A stretch of 30,996 nucleotides of DNA, taken from NCBI GenBank assembly GCA_015522685.1, contig WALU01000031.1, positions 1 through 30,996 of the forward strand, given 5' to 3'. The notes below the pieces were generated by a model, which did no database searches, was not told where the DNA came from, and saw only the letters and a program-made list of their open reading frames with translations. Positions 26,565-28,238 of the stretch are shown piece after piece (position 1 is the first letter of the stretch; every line of letters begins with the position of its first letter). Source of the stretch: Thermoproteota archaeon. Lineage in GTDB: Archaea; Korarchaeota; Korarchaeia; Korarchaeales; Korarchaeaceae. Position numbers and translations under genes: made by a program.

Positions 26565-27647
26565 TTAGCTTGTCTGAGACCTAAATTTATCAGTAAGCCG
26601 AATCAGGTAGGTTTTGCCCGATTTCTTTCTCTTAATAACCCTCCTATCGACTAATTCCTTGATAAGCCTGCTTATCTTCGGTTTTGAGAATCCAGTGAGA
26701 TTAGGAAGATCTTCCTGCGGGATCTCCTCTCTCTCCATTATGATATCTATGAGCTTCTTCTCATCCACTGTAAAAAAGTCCATTAAATCGATCTTTTCTT
26801 TCTTTTCATGTAAAAGATATATAAAAGATATATATGCAATTAAAACACCTATTATCAGACCGGTAGCTAGAGGAATGGGATCACTCAATTCTCTAAATAT
26901 ATAGGAGAGGGACCATCCTCCATATCTAGGCGCTGGAGCGCCGACTTCCTCTAAAACTTTTACTTTATATCCCTCAGATAATAGCTTCTTAATTGTATCC
27001 GAGTTCAGACTGCTGCCTATAATTATTATCGATTTAACAACCTTTAGGTGCTCTTTTAGGGAATTTATGAATCCTTCCGGTGGTTTTCCATCTTTCGTAT
27101 ATACTATAGGTGCACCCCTTTCAACGGCCGCTGAAAGCGCAACCATATAGTAGGATGAGTTCAAACCATCTACAAGTATAAGGGATTTACAATTACTCCA
27201 ATAGTTTACAGCTAACAAGAGGGATGTATCTAGCCTCGTGGCTCCTCCCACTCTACTAACTGATGCTCCTAAGCTTCTGACGCGGTTCTCGAACTCAATA
27301 GGTACAGCATTAGGAGCACCTATTATGAGAATACTCACACTTTTCTTGAATCTTATAAAGCCAGATAATAAACTAAGTACCTCTTCCTCATTGTTAGCTA
27401 CCAGATGAATAACCCAAGATCCATGAGTTATACCATAAGCCATAGCAATGGCCCAATCTGTGTATATATCTCCTCTAACCACTACAGCATCAAAATGAGG
27501 TTGCTGAGAGGAGACAAGTACAACTACCTGCGAGAAAGCTAAGAGTATAAGAAATAGAGCGATAGCGGGCCCGCCGGGACTTGAACCCGGGACCTCCGGC
27601 TCCGCAGGCCAGCGCTCTAATCCTTGCTGAGCTACGGGCCCGTTCAT
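26565..27647 (-). CDS. Membrane-anchored regulator: signal/TM segment, cell-wall-binding-repeat-2-like ectodomain, TM helix, C-terminal wHTH; codons 3-28 overlap tRNA-Arg
   Basis: ILIIGAPNAVP...SRVGGATRLDTS (CWB2-like); TM LATGLIIGVLIAYISFIYLL; DEKKLIDII..IPQEDL..TGFSKPKISRLIKEL (wHTH). AGGAGGT lies 6 nt before ATG 27647. Confidence 0.8.
   Translation of the reverse strand: MNGPVAQQGLERWPAEPEVPGSSPGGPAIALFLILLAFSQVVVLVSSQQPHFDAVVVRGDIYTDWAIAMAYGITHGSWVIHLVANNEEEVLSLLSGFIRFKKSVSILIIGAPNAVPIEFENRVRSLGASVSRVGGATRLDTSLLLAVNYWSNCKSLILVDGLNSSYYMVALSAAVERGAPIVYTKDGKPPEGFINSLKEHLKVVKSIIIIGSSLNSDTIKKLLSEGYKVKVLEEVGAPAPRYGGWSLSYIFRELSDPIPLATGLIIGVLIAYISFIYLLHEKKEKIDLMDFFTVDEKKLIDIIMEREEIPQEDLPNLTGFSKPKISRLIKELVDRRVIKRKKSGKTYLIRLTDKFRSQTS
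27566..27641 (-). tRNA. tRNA-Arg(GCG)
   Basis: GGGCCCG acceptor stem, GCTC/GAGC D-stem, CTGGC-CT-GCG-GA-GCCGG anticodon arm, CCGGG-TTCAAGT-CCCGG T-arm; no encoded CCA. Confidence 0.95.
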
Positions 27648-27653
27648 TCAAGA

Positions 27654-27660
27654 ACCTCCT
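27654..27660 (-). promoter_or_regulatory. Shine-Dalgarno AGGAGGT for ATG 27647
   Basis: Minus strand reads ...GAG-AGGAGGT-TCTTGA-ATG-AAC-[GGGCCC tRNA]. Confidence 0.7.
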
Positions 27661-27697
27661 CTCTAGAAGATACCTCATGATTGAAAAATATGATTGT

Positions 27698-27862
27698 TCA
27701 CTTTCTAACGAGTTTTGCCTTCTTAAGTCTTAGGCTCCTGCTTTTGCATCTCCTGCATCTTGTAGCAGAAAGGGGGTTCCTTGCTCCACATTTCCTACAT
27801 ATCTTATATCCTAAAAGGGCTTTCATAGCTATGCTTCTCTTAAATGGATCTTCAACGGGCAT
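27698..27862 (-). CDS. rpl40e: 50S ribosomal protein eL40
   Basis: MPVEDP...KICRKCGARNPLSATRCRRCKSRSLRLK; ATG at 27862. Confidence 0.95.
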   Translation of the reverse strand: MPVEDPFKRSIAMKALLGYKICRKCGARNPLSATRCRRCKSRSLRLKKAKLVRK

Positions 27863-27932
27863 TTTGATCTCCCAGCTTAGAAGCAACATAGCTTGATAAA
27901 ACTTTATGCTTAGAGGTTTCCAATATAGCATT

Positions 27933-28238
27933 ATGAGCTTAGAATTAAGGAAGAAGGTATTGAGGGAGCTAAATGAATCGGAGGTGCTACATATAAGGAA
28001 GCTTATTCACAGGCTTGATATCTCTACTTCTACATTGAAGCCTTTGCTAGCTGAGATGATAGAACAAGGTTTGATAGAGAAGTTCTCTCATGGAGGATAT
28101 ACATTTTATAGGATAACTAGTGAAGGTAGAGACTATCTTATGCAGTCGCATGCTGAAGAATCCGTAGAAATTAATAAAGAAGAGCAGGAAGAATCAAAAG
28201 AAGATAAAGAGAAAGAAAATATCAATGCTTCTTCATGA
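27933..28238 (+). CDS. Winged-helix DNA-binding protein with charged tail
   Basis: IRKLIHRLDISTSTLKPLLAEMIEQGLIEK...YRITSEGRDYL. Start is 27933 or 27906. Confidence 0.8.
   Translation: MSLELRKKVLRELNESEVLHIRKLIHRLDISTSTLKPLLAEMIEQGLIEKFSHGGYTFYRITSEGRDYLMQSHAEESVEINKEEQEESKEDKEKENINASS

Follow-up and report, generated by a model that had tools for sequence, protein, structure and literature searches.

Transcripts that join a transfer RNA (tRNA) to a messenger RNA (mRNA) and are cut by RNase P and tRNase Z are familiar from bacterial operons of the tRNA-tufB type and from the tRNA punctuation model of mitochondria. Transfer-messenger RNA (tmRNA, SsrA) combines a tRNA-like domain with a separate short tag frame that is entered in trans, and its tRNA part is untranslated. 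Archaeal integrase genes of the Sulfolobus spindle-shaped virus (SSV) type overlap the 3' part (~40 to 50 nucleotides [nt]) of a tRNA gene at the attachment site, often a tRNA-Arg, and are mobile and derived from integration; the tRNA/protein overlaps of animal mitochondria are partial, lie at gene ends and are resolved by alternative processing. Here, we describe a locus in a 30,996-nt stretch of DNA from a Thermoproteota archaeon of the family Korarchaeaceae (contig WALU01000031.1; the whole stretch is called the window below), in which a complete tRNA-Arg(GCG) gene lies in frame inside the 5' end of an open reading frame (ORF) for a predicted membrane-anchored regulator, behind a Shine-Dalgarno (SD)-like box and an ATG. 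On sequence grounds, we put the probability that ribosomes initiate ahead of the tRNA and read across it at about 0.6.

An earlier sequence-only reading of this DNA had laid out the locus in this way, and its layout was borne out in every detail when we read the minus strand and compared it with the ARAGORN and Rfam results. On that strand, the SD-like AGGAGGT (27654-27660) stands 6 nt (TCTTGA) ahead of the ATG (27647-27645), which is followed by a single AAC codon (27644-27642, so that the two codons occupy 27642-27647) and then directly by the 76 nt, counted to the discriminator, of tRNA-Arg(GCG) (27566-27641), which make up codons 3 to 27 and the first base of codon 28. A hydrophobic segment (residues 28 to 47, AIALFLILLAFSQVVVLVSS; 27507-27566, minus strand), the predicted h-region of a signal peptide or signal anchor, begins at the last base of the tRNA without any spacer, the sequence after the tRNA reading GCT ATC GCT CTA TTT CTT. 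The whole ORF (26565-27647, minus strand) encodes 360 amino acids with the N-terminus MNGPVAQQGLERWPAEPEVPGSSPGGPAIALFLILLAFSQVVVLVSSQQPHFDAVVV; peptides that the tRNA part would encode in members of the genus include GPVAQQGSER and one beginning RPAEPEVPGSSPGGPA. No ATG, GTG or TTG is present within the tRNA or the hydrophobic segment, as had been noted before; the first is a GTG at codon 28 after the tRNA, in the sequence DAVV.

The tRNA-Arg(GCG) at this position is a real single-copy gene for a canonical elongator tRNA, whose charging and maturation are predicted. The ARAGORN prediction, tRNA-Arg(gcg), spans 27565-27641 of the minus strand, and Rfam RF00005 matches 27566-27641 with 63.7 bits (cut-off 29; E-value 6.6e-13) over model positions 1 to 71 of 71. 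The structure is under selection: among 12 lineage sequences, 3 of the 23 tRNA pairs show compensatory double changes (CG/UA in the anticodon stem in 3 sequences, CG/GC in the T stem in 5 and 1 sequences), and no pair is broken. The anticodon-arm pattern occurs exactly once per genome, at this locus, in all five genomes searched. In the genome carrying the window (G000; below, L-, P- and C-numbers denote loci, public protein clusters and contigs), ARAGORN found one Arg tRNA gene each for tcg, gcg, ccg, cct and tct. Archaea read CGU and CGC with a G34 tRNA, and the single-copy tRNA-Arg(GCG) gene should therefore be indispensable. The base immediately ahead of the tRNA, C at -1 (27642), is invariant in the 12 lineages even though T (in AAY or AGY) or any base (in GGN) would be synonymous there. 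It can pair with the discriminator G73 (27566), which extends the acceptor stem to 8 base pairs and might slow or shift cleavage by RNase P. Two loci, L008 (in G020; tRNA at L008:2478-2556) and L039, which are identical across the compared region, carry the same tRNA-Arg body with a GCT anticodon and are labelled 'Ser' by ARAGORN; this anticodon is either an error or a mutation that would misread AGC and AGU.

The arrangement is conserved throughout the genus, a Korarchaeum-like one represented in our collection by 21 genomes and, among homologues in public records, by the names 'Candidatus Korarchaeum sp.' and 'Candidatus Korarchaeota archaeon'. The orthologue is present in 20 of the 21 genomes, G006 (63% complete) having only a match at the level of a paralogue. 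Two loci stop at a contig edge (the contig of G016 ends inside the tRNA), which leaves 18, and in these the tRNA abuts the ORF: 16 are tRNA-Arg(GCG), 1 has the same body with anticodon GCT and 1 is tRNA-Arg(CCG). An open frame with an in-frame ATG 6 or 9 nt before the tRNA is found in 17 of the 18 loci, with a G-rich box 3 to 8 nt ahead of the ATG. In three of these 17 the ATG lies at -9, and the codon at -6 is TTG or CTG; counted by genome, the exact ATG-NNC-tRNA order occurs in 13 of 21, and 3 more have the ATG at -9. With 10 further loci taken from named genome records and 11 taken from metagenome contigs, the set grew to 24 unique sequences, of which 23 have an in-frame ATG at -6 or -9. 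The tRNA-anchored information content of the upstream 30 nt in 12 lineage representatives peaks at -18 to -14, at -6 to -4 and at -1 only, and the first of these positions, the G-rich box, reaches 1.0 to 1.6 bits versus ~0.2 to 0.5 in the flanks. An SD-like box falls within -30 to -1 at 3 of the 47 tRNAs of G000. Synonymous divergence between lineages is high (dS of 0.87 to 2.4, or saturated). Since the SD box and the ATG are conserved while synonymous sites are saturated, both are kept by selection. Conservation of the SD, the ATG and the reading frame in orthologous loci, the comparison by which the sequence-only reading could be judged, thus turned out favourable on all three counts. The peptide encoded by the tRNA varies with flips of stem pairs (EVPGSSPGGP, KVAGSSPAGP, EVGGSSPPGP). 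A hydrothermal-vent metagenome run contains the window's DNA; besides this DNA run, a search of sequencing runs listed two of the same sample or study and no RNA run.

A tie to the upstream ribosomal protein gene, which had also been proposed, is upheld at the level of gene order. The gene for ribosomal protein L40e (rpl40e; 27698-27862, minus strand; Pfam PF01020, 27.5 bits against a cut-off of 23) is the adjacent upstream gene on the same strand, with 50 nt between its stop codon and the ATG in the window. By tblastn, each of the 35 genus loci with enough upstream sequence has it directly ahead of the tRNA and the ORF, the distance from its stop codon to the ATG being 12 to ~52 nt; no outgroup locus has it directly upstream of the orthologue.

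The outgroups show the regulator and the tRNA apart. The orthologue has its own SD-like box, ATG, M-K/R n-region and hydrophobic core at 10 loci in other genera, which range from the same family through order and class to phylum. A same-strand tRNA ends 5 to 50 nt before that ATG in 8 of the 10 (L021 to L030); the tRNAs found ahead of the regulator are Ile(GAU), Arg(CCU) and Lys(CUU), the last being intron-bearing and read by eye. None of the four loci from other phyla has a tRNA directly before the regulator. The regulator is thus habitually found behind a tRNA, which suggests either dependence on tRNA promoters or relocation via recombination between similar tRNA genes. Conversely, none of four outgroup tRNA-Arg(GCG) loci is followed by the regulator ORF and none has an ATG at -6 or -9, and two of the four are still located behind rpl40e; frame 1 contains a stop codon in two of them, and one has an ordinary TATA-like box at about -32 to -24. 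As the ORF-less tRNA-Arg(GCG) loci also lack the ATG, the SD and ATG accompany the ORF and not the tRNA or rpl40e. In L026 and L027, ARAGORN reported an 87-nt Leu(taa), which by eye is Lys(CUU) interrupted after position 37 by a short intron, as in L029; intron-bearing tRNAs are mislabelled by the default ARAGORN call.

What kind of protein does the ORF encode? Both the sequence and a structure model point to a membrane-anchored regulator, with a signal segment, an ectodomain resembling CWB2 cell-wall-binding modules, a transmembrane helix and a cytoplasmic DNA-binding winged helix. On the minus strand, the alpha/beta ectodomain occupies residues ~52 to 235 (26943-27494), the predicted transmembrane helix, hydrophobic in all orthologues, residues 257 to 280 (26808-26879), and the DUF7343/MarR-like winged helix-turn-helix (wHTH) residues 288 to 360 (26568-26786), followed by the stop codon (26565-26567). 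The AlphaFold model (mean predicted local distance difference test [pLDDT] 82.7) has a disordered stretch at 1 to 26, a helix at 27 to 47, the ectodomain at 54 to 232 with pLDDT 93 to 96, the transmembrane helix at 257 to 280 and the winged helix at 288 to 359. The top Foldseek matches of the ectodomain are Cwp6 (5j72_A, E-value 5.7e-07), Cwp8 and SlpA H chains, with E-values of 6e-07 to 5e-05 and a TM(query) score of ~0.4 for the three together, and the C-terminus matches MarR-family regulators and AspA. Pfam PF24034 (DUF7343 wHTH) covers residues 295 to 351 with 31.7 bits against a cut-off of 27.6; PF04122 (CWB2) scores 22.3 bits, below its cut-off of 24.9, and is recorded for several relatives. 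The family is widespread in archaea, with members in 37 of the 41 relatives that were searched. Strong purifying selection acts on the protein within the genus, the ratio of nonsynonymous to synonymous substitution rates (dN/dS) being 0.05 to 0.20 in eight pairs.

The segment directly behind the tRNA is part of this selected reading frame. In the 18 codons after the tRNA, substitutions at codon positions 1/2/3 number 119/39/208 (within-group comparisons), the length of the hydrophobic segment differs among lineages by whole codons only, and the motif FDAV(I/V)VRGD just past it is invariant across the genus; for these three reasons we regard the hydrophobic segment as translated. Residues 28 to 47 align with the signal cores of the outgroup proteins, after which (S/A/G)-Q-(Q/G) follows; Sec signals have, close to the N-terminus, a hydrophobic core of ~15 to 20 residues with a polar stretch behind it. 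A Tat-type signal, considered on account of the RR in SERRP, was rejected: the RR lies ~15 residues from the core and is RW in the window itself. Public gene calls for the family (P0001 to P0027) disagree, 20 clusters running through the tRNA with 348 to 361 amino acids, NCBI calls having 314 to 326 and JGI calls, labelled 'uncharacterized membrane protein', 285. In practical terms, the shorter NCBI and JGI calls remove the export signal. Further genes on the same strand, 3' of the regulator, encode a small zinc-finger protein (PF07754) and aEF-1beta; on the plus strand, a small wHTH protein of 110 amino acids with DeoR/MarR-like matches (27906-28238) is the divergent neighbour of rpl40e.

Could translation instead start after the tRNA? 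We consider this unlikely, but it deserves the most careful hearing. A lineage-specific canonical or minor codon (ATC, ATT or CTG) early in the hydrophobic segment would then be the start, the 5' end of the mRNA possibly arising from 3' processing of the tRNA, and the upstream SD and ATG would be a pre-tRNA leader or serve coupling to rpl40e termination. In 5 of the 17 genus loci, TTG, GTG or ATG does occur within six codons after the tRNA, which makes a downstream start possible there, in the P0012 lineage ATG is the second codon after the tRNA-coded part, and the NCBI annotation chose such starts in three relatives. The invariant C at -1, with synonymous changes available, likewise shows an RNA-level constraint on the leader. 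Early TTG, GTG or ATG codons are unremarkable in a Leu/Val-rich stretch, however, and their position is not conserved; the other 12 loci have none before codon 14 after the tRNA. By eye, no SD lies at a working distance from such starts, as GGAGG-like boxes occur only ~27 nt upstream inside the tRNA and the acceptor stem offers a mismatched GGCGGG, and a processed 5' end would read CUAUC, CCAUC or CUUUA and not AUG. A start after the tRNA also leaves unexplained why the ATG moves to -9 in frame where -6 is TTG or CTG, and why tRNA-Arg(GCG) loci that lack the ORF lack the ATG too. Some features nevertheless weigh against a start ahead of the tRNA, beyond the early codons just named. In about half of the lineages (L010 to L017, L050 to L053), the TATA-like TTTATTAA (a box at -29 to -22) ends at -21/-22, the normal position for a tRNA, and a tRNA transcript that began at +1 would exclude the SD and the ATG. 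In L016, L017 and L050 to L053, the ORF contains seven consecutive T (CTG ATT TTT TTA ATT) 12 nt past the tRNA, and L015 has five; T runs of this kind look like archaeal terminators and would dampen read-through transcription of the regulator. The tRNA-coded n-region is acidic or neutral (E, R, W/R, E, E), which is atypical for a signal peptide: it is 27 residues long with a net charge of about -1 to -2 and has no K or R within 14 residues of the core, where a Sec signal has a short positive n-region and the outgroups have M-K/R. The motif of SD and ATG alone is a weak start predictor in this genome: among 717 sites of the form GGAGG-N4-10-ATG in G000, 23% open an ORF of at least 100 amino acids, compared with 14% of all ATGs, and the anti-SD is assumed, the 16S ribosomal RNA (16S) in the assembly spanning positions 4 to 828 only. 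Locus L018 (G001:C25; also L057), with a TGA directly upstream and three starts after a 76-nt tRNA-Arg(CCG), looked like a natural experiment in which the later starts make up for a broken frame, but this reading was rejected. The sequence after its tRNA recurs in L053 behind an ordinary GCG tRNA that has the SD and the ATG, G001 is without any tRNA-Arg(GCG), and the contig joins near-16S sequence, tRNA-Arg(CCG) and the regulator gene, which a closed relative has at three separate sites. A chimeric assembly, or recombination at the 3' half shared by the tRNAs, is the probable origin of the contig, and the apparent experiment is uninformative.

Two further explanations fare worse. It is very improbable that the protein is made without the signal segment, from the GTG in DAVV or from JGI's internal ATG, with the hydrophobic stretch and the tRNA frame as relics. 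The JGI and NCBI calls of 285 to 326 amino acids in relatives would agree with such a protein, but the upstream segment evolves as coding sequence, the invariant FDAV and the residues that follow lie before or at those starts, every outgroup retains the signal peptide, the dN/dS values are those of a selected protein, and the CWB2-like ectodomain, with no export signal, would not be placed across the membrane from the wHTH. The explanation to which we give least credence is coincidence, in which a packed genome sets a gene against a tRNA, one frame happens to be open and an ATG lies upstream by chance. Tight packing of tRNAs and genes is indeed general in G000, where 6 of 47 tRNAs lie in a frame continuing for at least 100 amino acids and, as noted, GGAGG followed at a short distance by ATG is common. 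The closest look-alike, tRNA-Thr(GGT) ahead of psmB, is syntenic in 21 of 21 genus genomes and has an in-frame GTG at -3 in G000. Yet only 4 of the 21 have a frame open across this tRNA, and all 21 have a spacer of 17 to 24 nt, an SD-like box and a start; the frame and ATG at the tRNA-Arg(GCG) locus, in contrast, are conserved across the genus despite saturated synonymous sites. The other open-frame cases in G000 have a credible start with an SD 14 to 42 nt after the tRNA, and the present locus is without the spacer and own SD and start that every chance case keeps. Coincidence is thus already contradicted by the conservation in the genus, by the psmB control and by the ORF-less tRNA-Arg(GCG) loci, and the excess over chance lies in the conservation and not in the picture from a single genome. 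A second case in the same genome was sought and rejected, since each candidate (tRNA-Thr/psmB, tRNA-Phe, tRNA-Leu(CAA) and an intron tRNA on C29) has its own start after the tRNA. Genes that follow a tRNA at 14 to 18 nt and carry an SD and a start of their own include psmB behind tRNA-Thr(GGT) (G000:C35:88455-89147), an ORF behind tRNA-Phe (C13:2714-2800) and another ORF preceded by an intron-bearing tRNA, labelled His(atg) by ARAGORN (C29:15005-15141).

Use of the upstream ATG and reading through the tRNA, as the sequence-only reading had proposed, is therefore the best-supported account, by virtue of the conservation, the ORF-less tRNA-Arg(GCG) loci and the tRNA-Thr/psmB control. We hypothesize that one stretch of DNA has two uses, encoding both the cell's only tRNA-Arg(GCG) and the pre-protein of the regulator. 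Ribosomes would start at the SD and ATG, most simply on transcripts that read through from rpl40e, and translate the unfolded tRNA sequence. The first ~26 to 28 residues of the pre-protein would then be dictated by the tRNA and form a disordered extension ahead of the hydrophobic core of the signal peptide; the long disordered n-region would arise as a side effect of the tRNA sequence and would probably be lost on cleavage of the signal peptide, at the conserved (S/A/G)-Q-(Q/G) site proposed by eye. RNase P and tRNase Z cut at the ends of tRNAs. If the tRNA folded first, cuts at +1 and at the 3' end would leave an ORF without a start. Because processing removes the start codon, each RNA molecule would yield either tRNA or protein and not both. 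The regulator would presumably be made from a minority of transcripts, probably those reading through from rpl40e, that are captured by ribosomes before processing, a partition that would keep it scarce relative to the tRNA. The sequence-only reading had spoken of a possible tRNA-or-mRNA switch; the exclusion per molecule follows from the known action of RNase P and tRNase Z, whereas a regulated choice found no support.

Signals for transcription are compatible with this account in different ways in different lineages. Of the 41 tRNAs in G000 that have a TATA-like run, 24 have its end at -21 to -30, from which pre-tRNAs would be expected to start at or a few nt from the mature 5' end. At tRNA-Arg(GCG) of the same genome, the run ends at -43, ~19 nt farther upstream than at most tRNAs; from there, transcription would be expected to begin around the SD (near -20), with room for the SD and the ATG in the transcript. 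The run in question, the TATA-like or oligo-T ATATTTTT (27684-27691, minus strand; -50 to -43 relative to tRNA +1), could be a promoter with a transcript start near -20, an rpl40e terminator, or both. In L019 and L054, no AT-rich box is found between the rpl40e stop codon and the ATG, and in L019 the two are 12 nt apart; so short a spacer without a TATA-like run implies co-transcription with rpl40e. Read-through from rpl40e may be the common denominator, with an internal tRNA promoter in some lineages; for the part of the genus in which the tRNA resembles a unit of its own, two overlapping transcription units would fit better than one decision point. A scan for sigma-70 promoters and terminators found nothing above shuffled sequences, its model being not applicable to archaea. 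Two structural alternatives were rejected. A leader-trailer helix, or one that sequesters the SD, was considered for GGAGG before and CCUCC after the tRNA in some lineages, but the consensus fold of 12 sequences contains only the cloverleaf and C(-1):G73. Excision of the tRNA with ligation of its flanks would remove 76 or 77 nt and shift the frame, the 76-nt case running into a stop within 10 codons when followed by hand, so that only read-through connects the ATG to the ORF.

We tentatively take this idea one step further, to a proposal that we regard as doubtful but worth stating. The RNA spanning rpl40e, the tRNA and the regulator might be a bifunctional tRNA/mRNA, on which ribosome loading competes kinetically with tRNA folding and with RNase P and 3' processing, loading at the SD and ATG being coupled to termination of rpl40e 12 to 52 nt upstream. 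If so, the level of the surface-sensing regulator would report the balance of translational and tRNA-processing capacity. Codon 12 of the ORF (27612-27614) is CGC, and CGT in some lineages, the codon decoded by tRNA-Arg(GCG) itself. With CGC or CGT in the frame across the tRNA, translating the tRNA gene would require its own product, and under the bifunctional scheme this codon would allow feedback from the supply of tRNA-Arg(GCG) on the fate of the precursor.

The arrangement probably arose in the ancestor of the Korarchaeum-like genus. We hypothesize that a regulator gene that is normally located a few nt behind a tRNA lost the spacer and its own start, and that the start moved across the tRNA. 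In three sister genera the regulator is found behind tRNA-Arg(CCU), once with a 5-nt spacer and in frame. A likely route would be recombination between the near-identical 3' halves of Arg tRNA genes, shifting the regulator from behind tRNA-Arg(CCU) to behind tRNA-Arg(GCG), with the spacer lost afterwards.

Why would such a locus matter? Among the titles and abstracts surveyed, none describes a cellular ORF with a tRNA nested in its frame. If translation through the tRNA is real, no earlier example is known to us of a whole tRNA gene, cellular, essential and present in one copy, whose nucleotides double as codons of a conserved protein. The locus would then be a natural setting in which to study ribosomes and tRNA-processing enzymes competing for the same nascent archaeal RNA, show to what extent the sequence of an essential RNA can be recruited as protein code and illustrate the relocation of start sites in compact genomes.

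How does the locus then compare with the systems described so far? The protein has the order of signal, CWB2-like ectodomain, transmembrane helix and wHTH that unites DUF7343-type one-component regulators, with the ectodomain fold of Clostridioides difficile Cwp6, Cwp8 and SlpA; unlike the same family elsewhere, its N-terminus would be supplied by a tRNA gene, in this genus only. With tmRNA it shares the tRNA and mRNA character of a single RNA, but the tRNA at this locus is a canonical elongator, and ARAGORN reported no tmRNA in the window. As in SSV-type integrase genes, an archaeal protein frame contains tRNA gene sequence; here, however, it is the whole 76 nt, in the frame of a chromosomal, syntenic gene that is not an integrase. 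An integrase or attachment-site overlap was accordingly rejected, no integrase family being among the Pfam matches and the order of rpl40e, tRNA and ORF being kept in 35 genus loci. The overlaps in animal mitochondria are similar in that tRNA and coding sequence overlap on the same strand of a compact genome, and differ in that a complete tRNA is here nested in frame behind a start codon. The closest parallel may be the tRNA-mRNA co-transcripts, in which a tRNA and a protein gene share one transcript and processing sets the ends of the mRNA, in a layout as tight as that of the outgroup orthologues and of tRNA-Thr/psmB (a spacer of 5 to 50 nt with an own SD and start). In the korarchaeal locus, by contrast, the spacer is gone, the start codon lies beyond the tRNA, processing would behead the mRNA, and the nucleotides of the tRNA would themselves be read as codons.

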